Of a DNA stretch of 64,000 nt, positions 2,440-34,559 are shown piece after piece. Source of the stretch: an uncultured delta proteobacterium (GTDB lineage: Bacteria; Desulfobacterota; WTBG01; CAIYCZ01; CAIRTM01). Numbering within the stretch: position 1 is the first letter of the stretch; each line of letters begins with the position of its first letter. The stretch lies in assembly GCA_963804955.1 (NCBI GenBank), contig CAWDSQ010000026.1, positions 1-64,000 of the forward strand. The letters run 5' to 3'. Under the pieces are notes generated by a model. The model had not been told where the DNA came from, made no database searches, and saw only the letters and a program-made list of their open reading frames with translations. A program made the translations under genes and the position numbers.

Positions 2440-3387
2440 TTAAAAACCTTCCCGCGCAAGCTCTTCAAACAGCTTGCGCTGCTGCGGGGTGAGATCCCGC
2501 GGCACGGCGACAGTTATCTGCACCAGCTGGTCACCCTTGCCTGTTTTACCGAAATGGGGAATGCCATAGCCGCGCAGGCGCATCTTGGTGTTGTTCTGAA
2601 TGCCTGCCGGCACTTTCATCTGTTTGGACTCCTGAAGGGTCGGCACCTCTATGGTCGTACCGAGCACCGCTTCGGACAACTTTATCTCCCGGTTGAGTAT
2701 GATATCATCGCCATCGCGCTTGAAAAACGGATGCTCATGCACCTGTATGGTCAGATACAGGTCGCCGGGCGGCATGCCCGGCCCTGCCTCGCCGCCCTTG
2801 CCGGTCAGGCGCAGTTTCTGGCCGGAGCTGATGCCTGCTGGAATCCGCACCTTCACCTGCCTGCGGCTGCCGTCGAACATATAGTCGATTGTTTTTTCGC
2901 TGCCGTTTACGGCTTCGAGAAAATCGACAAAAAGGTCCATGGTAAAGTCCTGGCCCTTCTGGGCATAGGCCTGACGTCCTCCGAAACCGCCGCCACCCCC
3001 GAAAAGGTCTTCCATATTAACTGCGCCGCCACGCCGCCGGCCGCCGGCCTTGCCGCCACCGCCGAAAATCGTGCCGAAAATATCGCCGCCGAAGCCCATT
3101 TCGCTGAAAATGTCGTTAGTGTCGAAACCCCGGAAAATGTCCTCCTGCGAGTAGCGCTGATGAAAACCGCTGGAGCCGAACTGGTCATACTGGCGCCGCT
3201 TTTTCTCATCGCTGAGCACGGCATAGGCCTCGTTGACCTCCTTGAAACGATCCTCGGACTTTTTATCGCCCGGATTTTTGTCGGGATGATATTTAAAGGC
3301 AAGTTTTTTGAAGGCCTTTTTTATATCGTCCTGCGATGCGGTTTTGCTGACCCCGAGAGTTTTGTAATAATCCTTGTCTGCTGCCAT
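2440..3387 (-). CDS. DnaJ-class chaperone (type II, CbpA-like)
   Basis: J domain with HPD, G/F-rich region, DnaJ C-terminal domain, no CxxCxGxG zinc finger. Confidence 0.93.
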   Translation of the reverse strand: MAADKDYYKTLGVSKTASQDDIKKAFKKLAFKYHPDKNPGDKKSEDRFKEVNEAYAVLSDEKKRRQYDQFGSSGFHQRYSQEDIFRGFDTNDIFSEMGFGGDIFGTIFGGGGKAGGRRRGGAVNMEDLFGGGGGFGGRQAYAQKGQDFTMDLFVDFLEAVNGSEKTIDYMFDGSRRQVKVRIPAGISSGQKLRLTGKGGEAGPGMPPGDLYLTIQVHEHPFFKRDGDDIILNREIKLSEAVLGTTIEVPTLQESKQMKVPAGIQNNTKMRLRGYGIPHFGKTGKGDQLVQITVAVPRDLTPQQRKLFEELAREGF

Positions 3388-3397
3388 GCATTCCCCC

Positions 3398-5139
3398 TTA
3401 ACGGTATGATTCCTTTATGAGCCCGTTTAAATAATCCTGCGGATTATCGATTGCCTGAGCGTCGATATCAAAAACGCCGCAGCCGGTCCGCTCCCGGATA
3501 AGCTTGAGCCCGTGCTGGTAGTTTGAAAACAGCTCGCGCAGCAGTTTGCCGGCATCGGCATCCTCAACAAGCGTTCGCCAGATCAGGCGATTGAGGGCCT
3601 GATCCGTAAAGTGAATGCCGATGCCGTGGTACCGCGAAAAGGCCTGCTCGTAGCCGCGCGCCTCCTCCGTCACCAGCACGGCTTCCTCCAGCACGGCAGC
3701 GCAGTCCATGCAGCAGGTTGAGGCAATACGCACGATCGTATCTATGAAGGTTTCGCTCAGCAGAAACAGGCACTGCGGGTCGAGGCTCTCCCGGCGCGCA
3801 AGCATGCGGGTTTTCAGGGCACATTCATCTCGCTGCAGCAAGCTCTGCATGGCGGGCATACATCTGCTCGAGCCCCTGGCCTGCCATGATGCGGTCAAAC
3901 GCAGAATCCGGGTCTGCGGCCATCTCGGCGCTGACCACAAGGCGGGTTATGCCGCTTGAAGGCAGCGACTTCTCAAACTTCAACAAGCACGCGCTCAAGG
4001 GCGCTGATAAGGCCGCGAGCGCCTGTTTTTTCGCAAAAGGCAGCTTCGGCGATGGCGCGCAGAGCCTCGTCTTCAAACCGCAGATCAATGCCGTAGGCAA
4101 AAAAATCCTTCTTTTTGCTCATAACGACGGAGCTTGCCGGGCTTTTCAGTATCTGATAGAGGTCATCTGCGCTGAGCGGATCAAATACAGCCACAACGGG
4201 CAGGCGGCCGATAAACTCCGATTCAAACCCGTAGCTCTGGAGGTCTTCGGCCTTGACCTCCCGCAGCAGGTGCTCGCGGATGTTTGCCGTGCGCAGCGCA
4301 GCTCCGAAACCCAGGCCCTGACGGTTCAGCCGCTTTTCAATGATATCGTCAATATCGTTGAAGGCGCCGCTCATGATAAATAAAATATTGCGCGTATTTA
4401 TAATGCTGCGCTCCCGCTTGCCCGTGCGGCGAAACTGCTCAAGGGCCTCCATCTGGGACACGACATCATGAGGCACCTTTAAATCGACTTCCGTTTCCTC
4501 CATGGGCTTCAGCAGCGCCCGCTGCACCCCCGTGCGCGATACGTCAAGTCCCCAGCCTCCCCTGCTGCCGGCGATTTTGTCTATCTCATCGATATAGATG
4601 ATGCCGTACTGCGCCCGCTTAATGTCTCCGCCCGCTTCGCGAACCAGGTCGCGAACCAGGTCTTCCACATCGCCGCCCACATAGCCCGTCTCGCTGAACT
4701 TGGTTGCATCGCCCTTTACAAACGGAACGCCGATTTTCTGGGCGATCAGCTTGATCAGAAATGTCTTGCCCACGCCGGTCGGGCCGACCATAAGAATATT
4801 ATTCTTCACATTTCCTATGGCAGGTGACCGGTCCCGACGGCTGACGCGGTTGAAGTGCGTGCAAATCTTGGTGGCAAGAATTTCCTTGGCCCTGCCCTGC
4901 CCGATTGCATAGTCGTTCAGATATGCCTCGAGCTCCACAGGCTTCATGTTGAATGTAATATGGGGCATGTCCCCGGTATCTTTGCCCTGTGGCGTATCAT
5001 CCCGGACTCCGGGTATTTCATCAGTATTGGGAAATGCCATGGGTGTAGAGAGCTTCACCCTGTCTCCATATTTCTTTGACAGATAGTCATTGAGCTCTTT
5101 TTCAAGCTCACCCGGGCTTGGCAGGCTTTCCTTTGCCAT
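3398..5139 (-). CDS. ClpX-like AAA+ ATPase with C-terminal extension (frameshifted)
   Basis: Walker A GPTGVGKT, DATKFSETGYVGGDVE, Walker B IYIDEIDK, EFIGRLP and TGARGL. Continues through ORFs 3825..4100 and 3398..3940. Confidence 0.85.
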
Positions 5140-5418
5140 AACGCGCTCCTTGTCCGATATTTCTAGGTATATCGTAAGCATCACCGGGAGCCGAGTCAAA
5201 TTTTTTATCATGCAGAGCATAAAAAAAGACGTGCATAGTCGTCATATGCACGCCCTGTTTCAGTATCATGGCATAAAACGCTTCCGGAAGCGGCCTGGCT
5301 GAATGCAGGTTCAGGGGGAGCGCCTACAGCACATTCTGATCAGAATTCACCAGTAAGCATGCTGCCGCAACAATCGATTTCATACCCCGGTGAATACGTA
5401 TATCAGCCAGATGCGAGC

Positions 5419-6139
5419 CTATTTGCCTTTTTTCGGGCACAGGCTGTCAGCCTTGATCTGGGCAAACTGTTTTTGCCCGGACAGGGGGTTCTTTTCAAGA
5501 AACTCTTTATACTGATTGCATGCCTTCTGCTTGTCGCCGGCCAATTCAAACACGCGGGCAAGATTCAGGGCAGCAGCACTCCCGCCTTCGGCCTGGGTGT
5601 CGTTTTTCTGTTTTTCAAACCATTCTGCAGCCTGTTTAAAATCACCCTTGGCTTCGAAGGCATAGCCGATGCCCTCATAGCCCGCAGAGCGCAGATACTG
5701 CAGTGTTCCATGGGCGGCATCAAGAAACTCCTTATAATAGCCGATGGCGTCATCATATTTTTTGAGGCTGTAGGCGCAGTTCCCCTCATACAGCAGGGCC
5801 ATTGTGCCTGACATGGTGCTGCCATGCTTGTTCCGTCACCTCTTTAAACTGAGCCAGGGCCTTTTCATACAGTGCCGTCTGTGCTCCGGCGGCCTTGCTG
5901 TCGACCGGCGCCGTCATGGTGCTCATGGCCGCATAAAACATGTTGAGGGAATCCCGCTCCGCCCGCGCCTTCATAGCGCTCCAGGCCAGAACTGCGGCAG
6001 CCACCACCACAACGGCAAGGGCTATAGCGCCAATCTGCCGGGCATTCTGCTCCACATACTCCCTTACAGTAATCCACAGTGTTATCGGGTTTTCAGCATC
6101 AATTAGTTTCTTCTTAGGCTTCACCTTGATCTTTGCCAT
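5419..6139 (-). CDS. Membrane-anchored TPR protein (YfgM-like), frameshifted
   Basis: N-terminal TM helix (5786..6139) plus TPR-like helices (5419..5814). Confidence 0.75.
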
Positions 6140-6223
6140 ACCTTTGCCGCCTCTCCTGCTGCTGTTAGTTCTTGTTCCTGTAGTATGTCCGATACGAAAA
6201 ACGGCGCTGCGCTTTCCGCTATT

Positions 6224-6765
6224 TCAGTTTTCAGCCGTCAGATACGGCGCAAACCTGTCATATTTCTTCGGGCCGATACCCCCGACTTTTTTCAGCTCAC
6301 CAAGAAATCGAATGCCGCCGCTGCGGTCGCGGTAGTCCACTATGGCCTGCGCTGTAATCCTGCCCATGCCGGGGATCAGCGCCAAATCATCAACCGTTGC
6401 AGTTGCAAGAGATATCGGAAGGAAGCAGTGTATCCGCGCCTGGGCGCTCATGGACCCGACGGACACCTGCCTGTCGACAACAATTCTGCTGCCGTTTGGC
6501 AGATTCCTGCTGCCGGCGGCTGCCTCCGGCAGGAGCCCCCTGGCTCCAGCCGCGTCAAGCAACTGCCCCAGCTGTTGCGGGCTGTCATAGACTGTAGATG
6601 CCAGGCGACCGCACAGAGCCCGCAACCTCATAGACATACTGCTTCCGGGGAGATTGCGGGGTACCGGCTCACGCGGGGCCAGCAGGCTGCCAGCCCGCCC
6701 TGCACAGCGCCAGCAGCAAGCAGGGCGCATAGTACCATAAGCTGCTCTCTGTTGTACAGAGCCAT
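6224..6765 (-). CDS. ComEA-like helix-hairpin-helix DNA-binding protein
   Basis: HhH motifs LALIPGMG...AQAIVDYR and LKKVGGIGPKK. The ATG directly follows the cimA stop (TAAATG). Frameshift near the N-terminus. Confidence 0.8.
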
Positions 6766-8351
6766 TTACTCGGCTGCCCCCTTGATCTCGTCTTTGAGCA
6801 GCTTGTAGGTAATGCTGTCGGTGAGGGCCTGCCAGCTTGCTTCGATAATGTTTTCAGACACGCCAACCGTGCCCCACCGGTCATGCCGGTCACCGGTTTC
6901 GATGAGCACTCGCACTCTTGGATGCCGTACCTTCCCCGCCTGTGAGCACGCGCACCTTGTAGTCGATGAGGTGAACCTGCTTCAGCTCGGGATAGAACTT
7001 CTCAAGGGCCTTGCGCAGGGCATTGTCAAGCGCGTTCACCGGGCCATTGCCCATGGCTGCCGTATGCTCGATCTTGCCGCCGACTTTCACCATGATTGTT
7101 GCCTCGGACACGGGCTCGGCCTCTTCCTTTTTTTCGTTGATGACCCGGAACCCCACGAGGTCAAAATAGCGCTTTTTTACCCCCAGGGCCTTGCGCATGC
7201 GCAGCTCAAATGACGCCTCGGCGCCTTCGAACTGAAACCCGTGGCGCTCCAGGTCTTTGAGGTCGGCAAGCATCTCCTGCACCAGCGGGTCGTGGCTTTC
7301 GATGTCGATATTGAACTGCTGGGCCTTCTGCAGGATATTGGCGCGGCCGGACTGGTCGGAAACCAGTATCCGCTGCGTGTTGCCCACGCGCTCCGGGGGC
7401 TATATGCTCATAGGTATCGGAGCGGCGCTGCACAGCGCTCACATGCACGCCCGCCTTGTGCGCAAATGCGCTTGAGCCCACAAACGGCTGGTGCTTGTTG
7501 TGCGGCAGGTTGGCCAGTTCATAGACAAACCGGGACAGCTCGGAAATTTTCCGCAGCTGCTCATCGCTTATGCAGTCCATGCCCATCTTGATTTTCAGGT
7601 TGGGTATGATGGAGCAGAGGTTGGCATTGCCGCACCGCTCGCCGCAGCCATTGATGGTGCCCTGCACCTGCGTGCAGCCGCACTCGACTAGCGGCAAGGC
7701 TGTTGGCAACGGCAAGATCGCTGTCATTGTGCGCATGAATGCCCAGGGGCGCGTCGATTTCCTGCCGCACGGCGCTGAGTATTCTGTGAATTTCATAGGG
7801 CAGCGTTCCGCCATTGGTGTCGCACAGCACAAGGCAGTCGGCGCCGCCGCTGAGGGCGCTGCGCAAAATGCTGATGGCATAGTCGGGATGAGCCTTGTAC
7901 CCGTCGAAAAAATGCTCGGCATCGAAAAAAACTTCAGGCACATGCCGCTTGAGATAGGCTATCGACTCCTGGATAAGCCGCAGGTTGTCATCAGGGGATA
8001 TCCTGAGCACGCCTTTTATATGCATGTCCCAGGACTTGCCGAAAATCGTCACCGCTTCTGTCCGGGCATGTATAAGCTCGTTGAGGTTTTTATCTTTTTC
8101 AACTGCTGATGCCCGGCTTTGCCGTGCTGCCGAAGGCGGTAACGACGGCGTTTTTCAGGCGGCAGTTTTTCACTTCCTTGAAATACTGGAAATCCTTCGG
8201 GTTTGAGCCTGGCCAGCCGCCCTCGATATAGTGCATGCCCAAGCTCATCAAGCCGCTGCGTGATGCGCAGCTTATCCTCGACGGAGAAGGAAATATCTTC
8301 GGTCTGGTTGCCTTCCCTGAGCGTTGCGTCATAGAGCCGAATCTGCTTCAT
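6766..8351 (-). CDS. cimA: Citramalate synthase (multiple frameshifts)
   Basis: [61 protein letters not shown] and GNGPVNALD across ORFs 8049..8360, 8099..8332, 7561..8052, 7206..7943 and 6890..7387. Confidence 0.9.
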
Positions 8352-27206: not shown

Positions 27207-27337
27207 GCTGGAAATAGTCTTTATTGATGTTATCCGAGGCTAAAATATAACGACAGGGCAACCGGCAGCGGCGGATAGAGCATTTAACAAATCACTGTAA
27301 CCATTATTCATGTATTGGCAAGCAACACAGACCTTAG

Positions 27338-27403
27338 TCATTCCGGCTTGTCCGGAATCATTTTTCAGCACACCAAAAGGGATTCCCGTCAAGCGGGAAT
27401 GAC
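27338..27403. repeat. GTCATTCC-type REP-like palindrome pair
   Basis: GTCATTCCGGCTTGTCCGGAATC ... GATTCCCGTCAAGCGGGAATGAC. A related copy lies at 60222-60244. Confidence 0.7.
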
Positions 27404-28428: not shown

Positions 28429-28756
28429 GCAAACCTTTCCCCGCATCAGCTGTCAGGCTTTAGCGGTATAATCGAGATTGCCCCCATGCCTGTCCCGTAC
28501 CGAAGTCGTATTTTATTTTTTAGTATAGTTGCCGCGGAATATCAACTTTTTCTCATGCATGAAGTGTGATAGTCTCAAAATAAATTTCTGATTTTAGATT
28601 GGTTCTTTCCGGAATCTATTTAAATATATTTAAAAAGCTAACCACAGGGACACAGAGTGCCCAGAGAGAAGCTCCTGTAATTATTAATTAATTAAACAGG
28701 TTTGCTCTCAGCGACACTCATGCGGCTCTGCGGTGAAGACATGTTTAGACACGCTT

Positions 28757-30021
28757 ATGACAAAAGACACCCGAAATCCCTGGCTGTATGTGCCGACGCT
28801 CTATTTCGCCGAAGGCCTGCCCTATGTGCTCGTCAACACCGTTTCGGTCATCATGTACAAAAAAATGGGGCTTTCAAATGAGTTCATCGGTCTCACCAGC
28901 ATACTCTACCTGCCCTGGTTTCTCAAAATGGCATGGAGCCCTTTTGTCGATATCTACCGCACCAGGCGGGCCTGGATTATCGGCGCGCAGGCCATTCTGT
29001 GCGGCCTGCTGGCTCTGCTGGCACTCTCTGTTCCGACGCCGCTGTTCATTGGAGCCTCCCTTGCGCTGTTCATCCTCATGGCACTGGCCTCAGCCACCAA
29101 TGACATCGCAACCGACGGCTTTTACATGCTTGCCCTTGATAAAACAAAGCAGGCATTTTTTCTCGGCATTCGCTCGGCAGCCTACAGGCTCTCGCTGGTG
29201 TTCGGCTCCGGGCTGCTGGTGGTGCTAGCGGGTGTTATTGAAAGCCGCACCGGCAATATACCGCTCAGCTGGTCTGCGGTGCTGGCAGCAGCCGGCGCTG
29301 GTCTGCTGTGCTCTTGCCCTCTTTCACCGGCAGTATCTGCCGAAACCCGCAGCAGATGCCGCCGGCGCCGCAGCAGGAAGCAGCGGTTCAGGATTTACCG
29401 AAGCATTTAAAACCTATTTCATGCAGCCCCGCATAGCTGCCCGTCATAGGGTTCATTCTCCTGTATCGCCTGGGAGAGGCAATGCTTATAAAAATGGCCG
29501 CCCCTTTTCTGCTTGACCGCATCGATGCCGGAGGGCTCGGGCTTACGACTGAAACCGTGGGTATTGTTTATGGAACGGTGGGAATCATATGCCTGTCAGC
29601 CGGCGGTATCCTTGGCGGCTGGCTTATTGCACGGCTGGGCTTGAAGCGCATTATCTGGCCCATGGCCATCATCCTGAATGTGCCGCACCTGCTGTATGTG
29701 TATATGGCTATGGCCCGCCCGCCCCTTGCGGCGGTCTACCTTATGGTGGGAGTTGAACAGTTCTGCTATGGCCTGGGGTTCACTGCCATGGCGGTCTTTA
29801 TCATGTACAATGCCCGCGACCCGTACAAGACCTCGCATTTTGCCATCTCAACCGGGTTCATGGCCCTGGGGATGATGCTCCCCGGGATGATAAGCGGCAT
29901 GGTGCAGCAGGCGGTGGGGTATGTAAATTTCTTCATCATCGTGGTTGCCATGGCACTGCCGGGCATGGCACTTGTGCCCTTTATACCGCTTGACGACACA
30001 CGGGACCGCGGGGAAAAATAA
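28757..30021 (+). CDS. ampG: AmpG-like muropeptide MFS permease (frameshifted)
   Basis: TLYFAEGLP, LPW.LK..WSP.VD, SATNDIATDGFY, LYRLGEAML and KTSHFAISTGFMALG motifs. Confidence 0.85.
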
Positions 30022-30042
30022 AATTGGAGGAAAGATTTGTTT

Positions 30043-30695
30043 ATGAAAACTGTGATTAGAGTAATTCTCATAATCCATTCTGGCCTTAGGCACTAAAATA
30101 GCTTTTGACAAAATTATTTGGAAAGGTACTACCAAATCCCAAAGATTGAAAAATGCTGTAAATGAAGCTGTAGTAAGCAATTCTGCTGTTCAAAGCATGA
30201 CAAAAAAAATTTTCAATCCTGGCGAATTTTATTTATTAGTCCCTGACTCTAAAATTAATTATGAAACCACAAAAGAACAATATCTTGATTCTGTTTTGAT
30301 TCATCACACCTTTTCAATAAAAAATGACCTGAAAATAGCTATAATAAACAAATTATTGTGATTATGGCGTACAAGTTCCAGACGATTATAGGGCCAAGCT
30401 TCTTGATTTAATATTCAAGGATCAATCAGAAAGAAACGTTAATAAGAACTATTCGAAGTTATTGTATGGAAAAAAAACAGGTTTTGGAGCTGACGAATTT
30501 GTTTTCGAGCAGAACCAAAGCATCGGTGCTTTATTACTCTCGTCGTTACAGAAGTCAAATTATAGGACAAAACGCTTTACTCAATAAAAACTCAAAGTCC
30601 CAATAAAGAATTATGTGATCAAGTACAAAATTCTTTCGAAATTAAATAAGATTTTCGGCGAACCAAGGTCAGTATGCCGTTATTACACAAAAATC
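30043..30695 (+). pseudogene. AT-rich, frame-broken ORF (probable first gene cassette)
   Basis: RBS GGAGG and ATG at 30043, coding-like fragments (30146..30361), abrupt AT-rich composition, ending at an attC-like site. Confidence 0.4.
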
Positions 30696-30761
30696 ACATA
30701 ACGCCAGCACTGGACGTGGTTCCGTTGCGCTCCACCACGCCAGTGACCTTTAGCGTTGGGC
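30696..30761 (+). other. attC-like integron recombination site 1
   Basis: ACATAAC...GTTGGGC ends, with internal imperfect palindrome CACTGG(A)CGTGGT / ACCACGCCAGTG and AACGC/GCGTT pairing. 66 bp. Confidence 0.7.
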
Positions 30762-30775
30762 AATATAAAAAAATA

Positions 30776-31726
30776 ATGGAATGCATGAAAGTGGTTTTGT
30801 CATCTGCAGAAAGAGAAATTTTGGCTCGCTTACCAGGGCCTCCCGCGATAGCGACCATTCAGACTACTAACGTCTGGATCATTGAATGGCTAAATCATCA
30901 AGATCAGAAGACGGGCAGTCATCTTCACGATTGGATTCAAGCCCGACGACCAGGTTGGTCGGCATACATTTCTTGCACAAACAAAGCCGATGTCCTTGAC
31001 GCAATCTTTTGTGCTACCGCAAGAGCTCGACAATCCGGACTCATACCTTTGTTGCACCTTGAAGCGCATGGCAATGAATTCGGACTTGGAGGTCCAGACG
31101 GACATGGAGGAACTGAGCTACTTAGCTGGGAGGAGTTAACTAATCCTCTCCAGCAATTAAATTTTGAAACTGCATGTAACCTAGTTGTTTTTATTGCAGC
31201 TTGTATCGGTTTTTCCGGAATTAAGGCATTTAATAGAGGGCCGTATGCTCCGGCTGTAGCACTAGTGGGTCCAGTAGATCGGATTCTTGACGGCGATTTG
31301 CTAAAAGGCACAAAAGAATTCTATAGACGATACTGTGACGACAATCCGAAGCTTATTGATATGGTAGAGTGCGCATCTCGTGATGCAGGCGTGGTAGGGT
31401 TTGAGATAGAGCCATTTGCTATTTTAGCTTTTGAAGCAATGGTAGAAAGTCTCATTGTTTCTCTCCGCCCAGAAGAACGCAAACGAAGAACTGCGAGCTG
31501 CAAACAGCGTATGAGAAATTTGCAAATTTTTCCGGATTCCGAAATAGAACGTCGATTATCTATTCTTCCTGTAATACCTCGGCGGGAGGATTTACAAGCC
31601 GAATGGGATAGACTTTTTATGATCGATATTTGGCCTGAGAATCGTAAAAGGTTTGGAGTAGATATGATGGTAGTACGAAATTCTGTCTTGGCGGGTATGC
31701 ATTCAGACTTACTTGTAATACCATAG
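30776..31726 (+). CDS. Cassette-borne hypothetical protein with caspase/CHAT-like His-Cys dyad motifs
   Basis: LLHLEAHG and LVVFIAAC lie 45 residues apart. GC is lower than the host. The true start is likely downstream of attC1 rather than at 30674. Confidence 0.65.
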   Translation: MECMKVVLSSAEREILARLPGPPAIATIQTTNVWIIEWLNHQDQKTGSHLHDWIQARRPGWSAYISCTNKADVLDAIFCATARARQSGLIPLLHLEAHGNEFGLGGPDGHGGTELLSWEELTNPLQQLNFETACNLVVFIAACIGFSGIKAFNRGPYAPAVALVGPVDRILDGDLLKGTKEFYRRYCDDNPKLIDMVECASRDAGVVGFEIEPFAILAFEAMVESLIVSLRPEERKRRTASCKQRMRNLQIFPDSEIERRLSILPVIPRREDLQAEWDRLFMIDIWPENRKRFGVDMMVVRNSVLAGMHSDLLVIP

Positions 31727-31738
31727 ACAGAGAATGCA

Positions 31739-31795
31739 GCCCAACCATTAAATACACCCGACCTCCTTCGTAGACGGATAATTTTGGCGTTACAG
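31739..31795 (+). other. attC-like site 2 (degenerate)
   Basis: GCCCAAC (exact reverse complement of GTTGGGC at 30755) 12 bp after the stop, followed by CATTAAATACACCCG...CGGATAATTTTGGCGTTA. Confidence 0.6.
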
Positions 31796-31889
31796 CGGAT
31801 GGGCGTCATGCTCACGCCCCGAGCACACTAAGCCCCGCCTCCCCAACCCAAGCCCCTAACCCCTGAGCCCTGAACCCTCGCCCCCCCCC

Positions 31890-31925
31890 CTAACCCTGCC
31901 AGTGCTGCCGCGAGGCTGCCCACAG
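31890..31925 (-). repeat. Diverged relic of the radical SAM gene 3' end
   Basis: Reads LWAASRQHWQG* versus RWTSSRPHWQG* at 33040-33075. Both are followed by the same C-rich heptamer repeats. Confidence 0.75.
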
Positions 31926-32030
31926 GTTCACCCATTAAAGGACTAAAGGGGACAACAGCGCCCTTTATTGGTAGGCCTTCGGCGAAACAATGAAGAAAGC
32001 AGCGCCATGGTAAGTCTGCTGTCTTGCTTT

Positions 32031-32353
32031 TCACAGCAGCGATAGCAGAAACTGATTCATCGATACACCTGCTTCAGCGGATTTTATGGCAAGCTCACGA
32101 TGCTTCTCCGGCGGTATCCTCAGTGTAAGATGCCCTTGTATTTGCGCAGGCTCAATGGCGCCGGCACCGGCTCTTTTTCCTCCTGCATCCAGGCAATGGA
32201 GGCAGCCACCACGGCCCTGATTTCCTTTAGCGCCTTATCCGCTGTTTTTCCGTGAGCCCCGAGTGACGGGAACTCAAGACACCGGGCCACATGGCATTTG
32301 TCTTCATCAGACCATTCAATACGGTACGTGTATTTATCAATCACCGAGTTCAT
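32031..32353 (-). CDS. hicB: HicB family antitoxin (one frameshift)
   Basis: YTYRIEWSDED..HVARCLEFPSL.AHG and C-terminal LRIPPEKHRELAI..AEAGVSMNQ. Confidence 0.9.
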
Positions 32354-32586
32354 CAGGTTTCCTCCTGAAATTTTTTAATGGCTTTGAGCACGTCGCGAAC
32401 CTGATACGGCTTTGCCTTGCTGCCGTCACGCTGCAGGTTCAAGCGAGGGTCACCCTGCCACGGAGTTTTAAATATGTGGTGGCTGCCGCTTATACGCGGT
32501 TTTCCGAAATACCGCTGGCAGATTGTCAGCAGATCTGCAAAGCGCACATTATTTGGATTTGCCGGCAGTTTTGCCTCTTCTTTCAT
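32353..32586 (-). CDS. hicA: HicA family toxin
   Basis: NPNNVRFADL...GSHHIFKTPWQGDPRLNLQ....AKPYQVR, with a TGATG overlap onto hicB. Confidence 0.9.
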   Translation of the reverse strand: MKEEAKLPANPNNVRFADLLTICQRYFGKPRISGSHHIFKTPWQGDPRLNLQRDGSKAKPYQVRDVLKAIKKFQEET

Positions 32587-32595
32587 ATGGTAAAA

Positions 32596-32624
32596 ATGAT
32601 AGCATATGCGCTATCGGCTGTCAA
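32596..32624 (-). promoter_or_regulatory. Sigma70 promoter of hicAB with overlapping operator palindrome
   Basis: TTGACA-17 bp-TATCAT, with inverted repeat GATAGC-N6-GCTATC at 32598-32615. Confidence 0.8.
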
Positions 32625-32960
32625 CGGCCTGCGCAAGTGTAGCAGGCCGTTGAGTTTGTGAACTTCTTCATCATCGTTGCTGCCATGGCCCTGCCGGGCA
32701 TGGCCCTTGTGCCCTTTATTCCTTTAGTTTGTAGGGTGCGCCGCGCGCACCGGTAACGGCAGGTTATTGTGTTGTTATGCCTGCAGTCTGAAAACCCGGA
32801 TTGGCGATGGGGTTTTAAATTTAATTTTTGTTTGATTATCGGTGCGCACGGCGCACCCTACGGACTGCGCAAGTGTAGCAGGCCGTTGAGTTTGTGAACT
32901 TCTTCATTATCGTTGCTGCCATGGCCCTGCCGGGCATGGCCCTTGTGCCCTTTATTCCTT
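32625..32960 (+). repeat. Two ~100-bp direct repeats (diverged ampG 3' end) flanking a REP-like inverted pair
   Basis: Copies at 32625-32724 and 32861-32960 resemble 29895-29990. Between them lies GTAGGGTGCGCCGCGCGCACC ... GGTGCGCACGGCGCACCCTAC. Confidence 0.9.
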
Positions 32961-33039
32961 CAAAAAACTTAAGATATTCGCCTCGGCGGAACGCCCCACC
33001 CTGAACCCCGTCCCCCGATCCCTGACCCCTGCTCCCCCC

Positions 33040-34315
33040 CTACCCCTGCCAGTGCGGCCGCGAGGAAGTCCACCGGGCAATCTCATCCTGCAAGCCAGCC
33101 CTCAAGTCCCTGCGCAAGATAGAAGCGCGGCAGCAGCAGATCATCATCAACAGCAATAACTCCGTCAGAAACCGCGCTGCGGGCAAGCCCGGTATCGGGA
33201 TATATGCGTATGCCTGCGGTAAGCTTTAAAAAATCAAGAGGCAGGGAATCGGCAAAAGCAAGGCTCTCAAGCACGGTCTCGCGCGTCTCGCCCGGCCCGC
33301 CCAGCAGCAGATAGCCATTGAGTTTAATGCCGTGGTTCTTAAAAAGCTGTGCCGCCTGCCGAACATCATCAGGAGAAAATCGCTTGCGCATGTTTTTAAG
33401 TATGGCCGGGCTGCCGCTTTCAAAACCCAGGGCCACTTCGATGCACCCGGCACGGGCCATGTCGGCAACCAGAGCTTCATCAATTTTATACGGATAGACA
33501 ATGCATGTCCACTGACGTCAAGCGCTGCATCGATAAAAGCCCGGCACAGGCCGCGGGCATAATCCGCAGGGAGGTTGAATGTATTGTCTGTGCAGTAGAA
33601 ACGCTTAAATCCTGCTTCCACCTGGCGGCGGATATGGGCTGCCACAGCCTGCGGGTCGCGCTTGCGGAGGGCCGTGCCTTCGATACTGGCTGTTGAGCAG
33701 TAGGTGCACGCAAGGGGGCAGCCGCGCCGTGTCTGAAACGGCAGCCAGAGATCCTGCCGCCCCTCCATGGGGCATGGCCAGAGCGCCGGATCGGGCTGCG
33801 GCAGCTTGTTCAGGTCAAGGATGGAGCAGATTTTTTTAAACGGGGAGCGGCCCTTGACATACACGCCCTTGATCATGGCAACATCGACACCCATGCGCAG
33901 ATGGTCGAGCACAGCGGGCAGCGCTGCCTCGCCATCGCCCTTAATGCCGATATCGCCGTCAAGCCATTCAAGCAGCAGCTCCGGATACATGCTGTAGCCA
34001 GCACCTCCCAGAATTATGGGGGCTTTTGAAAGCCTGCGGCAACTCGCAACTATCGACCTGAAGCGGCTCAAGAAGAAACCGGGTTTCGCGCATGCTCTGA
34101 TCATCGATATTGCGCACCGATATTCCGATGGCATCAGGGGCAAAGGCCGCAATCGCCTCTGCCGCCTGCTGTGCGGCATCGCTGCCGGCGGTACTATCCA
34201 GAATCCGCACCTCATGCCCATCCCGCTGCGCAGCCGTTGCAACGCTGACAAGGCCGAGGGGCAATGTGGGCATAATCAGATCGGGCATGGAAAGGGAAAT
34301 AAACAGAACTTTCAT
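33040..34315 (-). CDS. B12-binding radical SAM protein (frameshifted)
   Basis: PLGL, GISVRNID, ILGGAG, QTRRGCPLACTYC, GFESGS and LLGGPGET motifs. Confidence 0.88.
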
Positions 34316-34559
34316 AAGTTTTTTCTATACCATGAAGTCATGATGCTTTACATTGTTTTTACCGGCAGACAATATTTGACATCCCCTGCCGCCTGGGTTA
34401 ATACATTATTACTGATTCGTTCCCGAACGAAAAGCCGTTTTTTAGAAATTGAATGTAATCCGCCGCGGCGGAGATAGCTAAAAAATACTTGGCTTAGTAC
34501 AGCGCCCCATAAACAAGGCGACCCTATTAATTTGACACAAAAAAATACGACCGTGATTC

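Follow-up and report, generated by a model that had tools for sequence, protein, structure and literature searches.

A probable fossil integron cassette encodes a predicted stand-alone caspase-fold protease in an uncultured delta proteobacterium

We analysed a 64,000-nucleotide (nt) stretch of DNA from an uncultured delta proteobacterium (hereafter the window: positions 1-64000 of contig CAWDSQ010000026.1, here C26, in assembly GCA_963804955.1, here G000) and found a gene for a predicted caspase/CHAT-like cysteine protease carried on what is very probably an integron gene cassette (30756..31789, + strand). The cassette, probably fossilised now, closes a short attC array that has no integrase and was inserted right behind an MFS transporter gene; its product is best explained as a cytoplasmic cysteine protease. 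A role for caspase-like proteases as executioners in bacterial immunity is emerging from gasdermin, type III CRISPR and type IV Thoeris systems; in every characterised example, to our knowledge, a separate sensor or signal generator acts upstream of the protease. The assembly comprises 4.26 Mb in 36 contigs and is 87% complete; C7, C11, C13, C32, C33 and C35 denote its other contigs, G001, G003 and G004 genomes of the same genus, and L numbers individual loci.

Results

The protease gene lies between an attC site and a decayed attC

The first site, attC 1 (30696..30761, + strand, 66 nt), has the boxes R'' ACATAAC and R' GTTGGGC, the latter at 30755-30761, and was recognised by covariance models, by its fold and by a relative on contig C32. 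Two attC models were used: R1, seeded with nine sites (seven on other G000 contigs and two at homologue loci) under a hand-written structure, and R2, seeded with 17 R1 matches outside the window. The results showed a match to attC 1 over 30691-30761, on the + strand only, with both R1 (36.3 bits, E = 1.3e-7) and R2 (35.2 bits, E = 1.9e-7); the match was full length, with paired R''/R' and L''/L' boxes and a variable loop. As single-stranded DNA, the palindrome folds better than shuffled sequences (z = -2.0 and -2.7 for the + and - strands, respectively). In the R2 alignment, which was fitted to the structure so that its pairing figures are flattered, 79.3% of cells pair, compared with 65.2% in shuffles (0 of 500 reached the observed value) and 30-46% with partners slid, and 8 of the 15 pairs carry changes on both sides. 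Additionally, the 14-nt core of the hairpin recurs in G000, and its closest relative (C32:103002-103072) lies beside an integron integrase gene (intI) in the same orientation. These results demonstrate that 30696-30761 is a genuine attC site. Because the cassettes on C32 read away from intI, the + strand is the top strand in the window, and crossover would fall between G30755 and T30756.

Several other searches were uninformative for this site. A strict RYYYAAC...GTTRRRY motif-and-fold scan did not pick up 30696-30761, because its R'' box reads ACATAAC. An initial MAFFT alignment of 11 attC sites had misaligned rows, and RNAalifold derived no consensus from it; C32_e (degenerate) and L009up (offset stem) were dropped from that 11-site alignment for the R1 seed. 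Rfam, which holds no attC family, gave five listed matches at E <= 10 over 28-35 kb, all far below gathering scores.

The second site, attC 2 (31739..31795, + strand, 57 nt; R'' GCCCAAC, R' GTTACAG), opens with GCCCAAC at 31739-31745, 12 nt past the TAG stop codon of the protease gene (31724-31726). With five occurrences in the window and a genome-wide density of 0.034 per kb, this heptamer is too rare for its placement here to be a matter of chance. The site was the second-best match of R1 and of R2 in the whole 64 kb, both strands included, with the boundaries given by the original prediction (R1: 10.4 bits, E = 2.3 in the window; R2: 15.8 bits, E = 0.087 in the window and 2.7e-4 when the search covers just the 200 nt that follow the stop codon, 31727-31926). 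It aligned column by column with L042:6644-6700 (42.9 bits), the intact attC that closes the array at this chromosomal position in G003, and also with C33:3547-3604. The R box and spacer letters are kept, and 6 of the 10 L-box pairs are broken. Beyond the G/TT point, the window, G003 and contig C33 have almost the same sequence. Homology to the terminal attC of G003, together with this conserved flank, therefore identifies attC 2 as a mutated ortholog of an array-terminal attC, and on this comparison we read it as the terminal attC of the array, present and decayed.

Both sites are on the + strand, 978 nt apart, and their G/TT points delimit a 1034-nt cassette made up of a single gene and the decayed attC that belongs to it. 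Its first bases, TTGGGC, conform to TTRRRY and complement its own R'' box, GCCCAAC. The original prediction had described an open reading frame (ORF) bracketed by GTTGGGC at 30755 and GCCCAAC at 31739, each within an imperfect palindrome, as an attC-bounded cassette. The positions are as it claimed, and the bounded cassette agrees with the model match of attC 1 and the homology of attC 2 to an intact attC; the palindrome at 30696-30761 folds beyond shuffles, and that at 31739-31795 does not.

An explanation without integrons would make the flanking hairpins a terminator or a repetitive extragenic palindromic (REP)-type repeat and the gene an ordinary island gene. A simple terminator scan did flag part of the first hairpin on the - strand, and the second site gave no fold signal. 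However, the first site is a strand-specific, full-length model match with relatives in an array beside intI, compensatory changes support its pairing, and the second site has an intact attC as its homologue; this explanation is largely refuted, and we regard it as very improbable. A further weak attC-like match was seen at 27282-27339 (R2, 12.8 bits, E = 0.63), between BON-domain and Memo-like genes, which is either a remnant or chance.

The array has outlived its integrase

No match to the integron integrase model TIGR02249 was found anywhere on contig C26, in line with the prediction that no integrase is nearby. The only IntI-like gene in G000 is a split intI on C32 (C32:99791-101287, equal to L028:2791-4287; TIGR02249, 182.7 and 132.3 bits), interrupted by ~660 bp in which the opposite strand carries two small ORFs, one resembling a CopG antitoxin. 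At least four attC sites follow this gene and read away from it, C32:103002-103072 lying ~1.7 kb from intI, and the cassettes downstream each end in an RYYYAAC...GTTRRRY hairpin. Their cargo includes Abi_C (split), an Mrr restriction endonuclease and EF-hand cassettes. Across G000, R1 found 13 sites, on C32, C7, C33, C13, C35, C11 and C26, and scattered integrase-less attC sites are therefore common in the source organism.

A cluster of at least two attC sites without an integron integrase is termed a CALIN (cluster of attC sites lacking integron integrases) in IntegronFinder usage. The window locus is of this type, with one strong and one decayed site in one orientation and no intI; the adjoining intI and attI of a complete integron are not found there. 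As in other CALINs, its cassette consists of a single promoterless gene with an attC of its own (decayed here) behind it, the array keeps one orientation, the first bases complement the cassette's own R'' box, toxin-antitoxin (TA) cassettes occur as neighbours and no integrase adjoins. It differs in having only two sites, the terminal one decayed, in occupying a fixed genus-wide position embedded in duplicated flanks, and in belonging to a genome whose only intI is disrupted. The cassette had been predicted to be mobile. Because its own attC is decayed and the intI is disrupted, it is probably immobile now, a fossil today, while relatives of the gene sit in intact cassettes elsewhere.

The encoded protein is predicted to be a clan CD protease

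The protease gene (30785..31726, + strand) encodes 313 amino acids (aa) from the ATG at 30785, or 316 aa from the ATG at 30776; the database copy, P0001, has 313 aa, and residues are numbered here on the 316-aa form. The product comprises a predicted protease domain of clan CD, the caspase-hemoglobinase fold (30863..31420, residues 30-215), and an all-helical C-terminal region (31421..31723, residues 216-316) with no fold assigned.

An AlphaFold2 model built from 32 sequences (predicted local distance difference test, pLDDT, 85.9; predicted template modelling score, pTM, 0.79) has the strand and helix order of caspases. In this model, the core is an alpha/beta sandwich in which a conserved His-Gly follows one strand and a Cys the next core strand, as is characteristic of clan CD: His98-Gly99 end strand 91-100 (strand 3) and Cys143 ends strand 137-143 (strand 4). 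These residues belong to the motifs LLHLEAHG, from residue 92, and LVVFIAAC, from residue 136, and are 45 residues apart (codons 31067-31069 for His98 and 31202-31204 for Cys143), as had been predicted. Among the 40 Foldseek matches listed, all except four with low template modelling (TM) scores were clan CD peptidases or complexes containing one. In 47 relatives with 21-45% identity to the window protein, E96, H98, G99, A141, A142, C143 and G145 are at least 90% conserved. Additionally, the ORF is full length and keeps all residues invariant among its 31 closest aligned relatives. Strand ends and conservation together place the predicted catalytic dyad at His98/Cys143, and the model makes it likely that the protein is an active clan CD protease. 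Model, structural matches and alignment thus favour the stand-alone caspase/CHAT-like fold with conserved His and Cys that had been proposed. With metacaspases, caspases, legumain and GPI8, the modelled protein shares the fold, the strand order and the placement of His-Gly and Ala-Cys at homologous strand ends, whereas identity is 8-15% and no family hidden Markov model (HMM) matches.

The C-terminal region is a helical extension not seen in the clan CD structural matches. Its helices (DSSP, 214-313) have a pLDDT of ~90 in the full model; folded alone, the region gave a poor result (pLDDT 68.5, pTM 0.40). N289, R292 and F293 are at least 90% conserved in the same 47 relatives, and the motif W-D..F-M-I-D..P-E-N..R-F-G is conserved. 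In the model, these ~100 residues probably pack on the core. The loop after Cys143 (~141-160) is the least confident part of the core. In relatives this disordered loop holds a conserved R-G-P-(R/Y)-A-P stretch, which, speculatively, might be an autoprocessing site if the enzyme were Arg-specific.

Family-level searches gave no named relative. In Pfam, the window protein had only a sub-threshold TPMT match (E = 0.054), and NCBIfam gave no match. Peptidase_C14 (PF00656) did not match the protein at E <= 1, 32 relatives at E <= 10 or 18 distant relatives at E <= 0.01, nor did it match anywhere in the genome. Similarly, neither Pfam CHAT (PF12770) nor DUF6642 (PF20347) matched the protein or its relatives. 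A profile search of PDB sequences returned 0 matches at E <= 10. Alignment with a Peptidase_C14 protein in hhalign put the HG and the C in register, but with a probability of 5%, which is statistically weak. An ESM Atlas lead to DUF6642/CHAT clusters was unconfirmed by HMMs, and no paper on DUF6642 was found in the literature.

The family is large, and some homologues sit beside attC sites

A word-indexed search found 193 relatives at E <= 1e-3, all 'hypothetical' where named. In a profile search of 1.84 billion representatives, 2225 sequences, each standing for a 50%-identity cluster, were matched at E <= 1e-3, 1232 at E <= 1e-10 and 103 at E <= 1e-30. Full-length matches were mostly 270-325 aa; longer fused forms (567-2000 aa) were searched for and none was found, which is weak evidence. 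Judged on these searches, the family appears large and unnamed, outside the copies of Pfam, NCBIfam and PADLOC that were searched. It is rare within the order examined (3 of 401 genomes). A metagenome locus scan yielded one locus and a viral contig scan one distant match; among viral proteins, the best structural matches were two uncharacterised proteins, one from a Myoviridae phage, ahead of giant-virus caspases.

Distant members occur on 21 plasmid records, of which 16 are from Klebsiella. All 15 plasmids listed in detail were non-mobilizable, and most were ~110 kb. On Klebsiella pneumoniae plasmid pKP301b (L048, 47774-48577), a 267-aa distant member (hhalign probability 99.3%) adjoins RepB of the ~110-kb IncFIB plasmid, and equally strong matches were found on 15 further Klebsiella plasmid records.

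We compared 17 loci with a near-full-length homologue (L008-L023 and L033), of which L016 is frameshifted and L022 truncated; L017 and L020 are not independent, because their downstream sequence is common to both. In six of the 17, an attC lies just upstream on the gene's strand. Four of these were matched by R1, two clearly (L010:5875-5973, E = 5.8e-7; L016:5857-5959, E = 0.0021) and two weakly (L019:2109-2190, E = 0.19; L011:2483-2555, E = 0.16); L018:4348-4405 was picked by eye as a seed, and L009:5903-5961 came from the strict motif-and-fold scan. The higher R2 scores of these six sites are not independent, because the sites sat in the R2 seed. L019 has a second attC right after the stop codon (3150-3252, R2 E = 6.3e-4), outside all seeds, and with attC on both sides it is therefore a complete one-gene cassette. 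L016 has an IntI-like gene 2.4 kb away.

In L008, a group II intron reverse transcriptase/maturase gene (4359-5888) lies directly upstream of the homologue. GTTGGGC immediately precedes the intron ORF, GCCCAAC immediately follows the stop codon of the homologue, and an attC may have been the insertion site of the intron.

Some homologues lie near candidate defence genes

PADLOC matches were present within 4.5 kb in 5 of the 14 loci scanned for neighbours, and the neighbouring genes differ from locus to locus. L010 carries, in the adjacent cassette, a 722-aa AAA_13 protein (3685-5853) matching the PADLOC candidate PDC-S06 (857 bits). PADLOC also detected a BrxP-like gene and a caspase in L018, an AriA/GajA-like ATPase in L021 and a Mokosh-like helicase in L020. 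In L014, the fifth of these loci, a 220-aa TIR_2 protein (5296-5958) ends 43 nt before a homologue (6001-6906) that is 51% identical to the window protein. The checks on defence and on homologue context suggested by the original prediction thus came out mixed: defence genes lie near some homologues and attC sites upstream of six, while the protein itself has no PADLOC match and 11 loci show no convincing attC.

The company kept, namely TA, abortive-infection (Abi) and candidate defence genes in the same arrays or near homologues, makes a role in defence or abortive infection plausible; we hold such a role to be possible, somewhat short of an even prospect. About one third of the unknown-function cassettes tested from mobile integrons gave phage resistance, according to a preprint (bioRxiv 10.1101/2024.07.02.601719), and by analogy the defence reading would fit that figure. 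Neither that preprint nor a 2026 cassette-recovery preprint contains the words caspase, protease or peptidase, and our literature search found no paper tying caspase-like proteins to integron cassettes. Like the bacteriophage resistance integron cassettes (BRiCs) and the defence cassettes of sedentary chromosomal integrons, the window cassette is small and self-contained, and such cassettes are often of unknown family.

The gene could instead encode an accessory protease or transpeptidase without an immune role, engaged in peptide processing, degradation or legumain-type ligation and borne on the cassette as a niche-adaptation gene. Against this, inspection by eye showed no signal peptide, there are no partner genes, the family is patchy as well as rare, as in the order noted above, and it shares arrays with TA, Abi and defence genes. 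We consider this account rather unlikely.

The arrangement in L014 raises another alternative, that the protein is an orphaned, signal-activated effector resembling that of type IV Thoeris, its C-terminal region binding a nucleotide signal from a partner such as TIR, so that the cassette would be the effector half, inert or partner-dependent. The TIR gene of L014 makes a signal-activated mode possible in that locus. However, a TIR neighbour is present in only 1 of the 17 loci, L019 and the present locus hold complete single-gene cassettes, TIR_2 had no match in the 87%-complete genome G000, and the proteases of type IV Thoeris are described as PF00656, a family that this one does not match. 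We judge the orphaned-effector account unlikely.

The chromosomal site differs in content among relatives

On the left, the array is bounded by an MFS-type transporter gene (28733..30021, + strand; ORFs 28733-29410 and 29482-30021; Pfam Acatn and MFS_1) and on the right by a convergent B12-binding radical S-adenosylmethionine (SAM) gene (33083..34315, - strand; three overlapping ORFs; Pfam Radical_SAM and B12-binding). DNA identity to same-genus genomes is 91-93% in the MFS region, up to 30011-30022, and the radical SAM gene is 81-92% identical in relatives; homology with relatives stops at 30022, one base past the MFS stop codon. The split ORFs of both genes are either true pseudogenes or assembly indel errors.

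Between the MFS gene and the cassette lies a low-GC (~30%) stretch ending in attC 1 (30022..30755, + strand), recognised by composition and ORF lists. Its ORFs are only fragmentary, the longest being 71 aa (30146-30361) with no Pfam or NCBIfam match, and the stretch is probably a decayed upstream cassette whose left boundary is uncertain. A partial relative of its 3' end, with a truncated copy of attC 1, is found at G000:C7:535811-535952 (84-94% identical to window 30616-30757).

To the right of attC 2, alignment, repeats and blastn define an array flank with a C-rich tract (31796..31926, + strand), of which a second copy lies at ~32985-33076; the flank is conserved, and in relatives the radical SAM gene's 3' end follows it directly. 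Outside the cassette, a HicB-like gene (32120-32353) and a HicA-like gene (32353-32586) form a pair on the - strand (32120..32586; weak Pfam matches, E = 0.018 and 0.0035). The pair has a promoter-like site at 32624-32596 (11 of 12 positions) and a 95% identical copy on C33 between attC sites. Beyond it, repeats reveal two pseudo-copies of the MFS 3' end (32624-32724 and 32860-32960; + strand, 32624..32960) flanking an element resembling a miniature inverted-repeat transposable element (MITE; 32725-32859, ~135 nt, 31-nt inverted ends), of which dozens of copies (72-100% identity) occur in G000 and in genomes of the same genus or family. The MFS 3' end is thus present three times, the two pseudo-copies being 74% and 98% identical to the reference (29889-29989), and the radical-SAM-proximal flank twice (31884-31926 and 33034-33076). 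On the sequence, the triplicated MFS end and duplicated flank read as footprints of repeated recombination, with the window version a mosaic. C-rich low-complexity tracts (G-rich on the - strand) were seen at 31820-31900 and 32985-33040, at the array end and the radical SAM 3' end.

The interval between the same two genes differs among the four same-genus genomes. In G003 it holds four attC sites on the + strand (L042 3384, 4388, 5895 and 6644), none of them used in the models, with a ribbon-helix-helix (RHH) protein, AbiTii, an alpha/beta hydrolase and Phd-ParE as cargo. RHH-ParE and Lcl_C proteins occupy the site in G001, and Lcl_C proteins and a HEPN-nucleotidyltransferase pair in G004. Contig C33 (L031:1-5033, compared with window 29957-34400) presents a second version of the locus within the same assembly, 92-95% identical in shared parts, with a PIN gene, a HicAB pair and a 344-aa gene of unknown kind between two attC sites; this version is either a true duplication or a product of mixed strains in the assembly. 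Among the 20 relatives searched, none had a listed DNA match to the protease gene. A genus-wide integrase-less array at a fixed site may suggest that cassettes can turn over without a resident integrase, for example when foreign DNA is taken up and recombines within the duplicated flanks.

In this genome the gene might be a silent relic, intact by chance or recently stranded, unexpressed and functionless. In keeping with this, the attC is decayed, the intI broken, the neighbouring cassette decayed, the flanking genes split and no promoter-like site was found upstream. However, the full-length ORF keeps the residues invariant among its 31 closest relatives, and the co-directional MFS gene upstream could supply transcription; expression of the protease gene would need read-through from that gene. 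We think a silent relic improbable.

Discussion

As a whole, the locus is best explained, in our tentative view, as a fossil cassette carrying a latent caspase-fold protease that would be triggered, for example, by phage. The protein would be self-contained and normally latent, because an unrestrained protease would not survive as a lone gene. Its regulatory element may be the C-terminal region, the poorly ordered loop after Cys143, or both. A trigger, for instance phage infection, would then set the protease cleaving many proteins of the cell or the phage, much as the caspase-like executioners of type IV Thoeris and type III-B CRISPR do. In this account, expression, catalysis and regulation as well as the trigger and the targets are inferred. 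The bolder proposal of a new single-protein abortive-infection system, with a caspase-fold executioner of ~310 residues and a helical C-terminal sensor or latch on a one-gene cassette, found also on Klebsiella IncFIB plasmids and in some phages, we regard as doubtful.

A number of points weigh against this reading. The covariance models, although free of window sequence, were built in this analysis with a shortened calibration and are biased towards the attC type of this genus. The palindrome of attC 2 does not exceed chance (fold z = -0.4 and +0.5). The decay of attC 2 and the split ORFs of both flanking genes are signs that the whole locus may be eroding, and no promoter-like site was found on the + strand upstream of the protease gene. 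At 11 of the 17 homologue loci (L008, L012-L015, L017, L020-L023 and L033), no attC was detected next to the homologue (R2, filters off, E <= 0.05), the nearest being L022:5892-5962 (E = 1.1) and L015:7656-7702 (E = 0.053); four of these 11 contigs carry too little upstream sequence for a judgement. Neither Pfam nor the PDB profile search nor hhalign could demonstrate homology to named caspase families at the sequence level. In PADLOC-DB 2.0.0, the window protein matched 0 families at E <= 1, and the 5 of 14 loci with defence neighbours are a bare count with no statistical control.

The nearest worked examples are the caspase-like effector found in type IV Thoeris and PCaspase, the latter part of a type III-B CRISPR cascade, as given in the sources (bioRxiv 10.1101/2024.10.24.620036, PMC13069673, PMC13243611 and bioRxiv 10.64898/2025.12.03.692087). 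The type IV Thoeris proteases are introduced there as members of the caspase family PF00656 (bioRxiv 10.1101/2024.10.24.620036). The catalytic Cys of PsCaspase has a similar position (C129, compared with C143 in the window protein), and the L014 homologue likewise sits behind a short TIR gene. Type IV Thoeris is, however, an operon of TIR and effector, whereas the window cassette has a single gene, its neighbouring ORFs are not TIR and its product does not match PF00656; the Thoeris layout was seen in 1 of the 17 homologue loci (L014), there with a non-PF00656 protease. Compared with type III CRISPR-associated SAVED-CHAT (PDB 8tl0), the window protein has no SAVED sensor, is shorter (~313 aa vs ~480 aa in the 8tl0 chains), has no Pfam CHAT match and is not beside CRISPR genes.

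The locus is a variation on two known themes, the integron cassette and the clan CD protease of the immune type; the protein belongs to a large family outside the Pfam, NCBIfam and PADLOC copies searched. The locus is a clear case of a cassette array outliving its integrase, and a fixed site with differing content in close relatives bears on cassette movement without IntI. The family is large and unnamed, and its protein is small enough for direct synthesis and testing. If it defends, a stand-alone caspase-fold protease on a one-gene cassette would be the smallest such module, and one would then have to ask how a single small protein can detect infection while keeping a potentially lethal protease in check.

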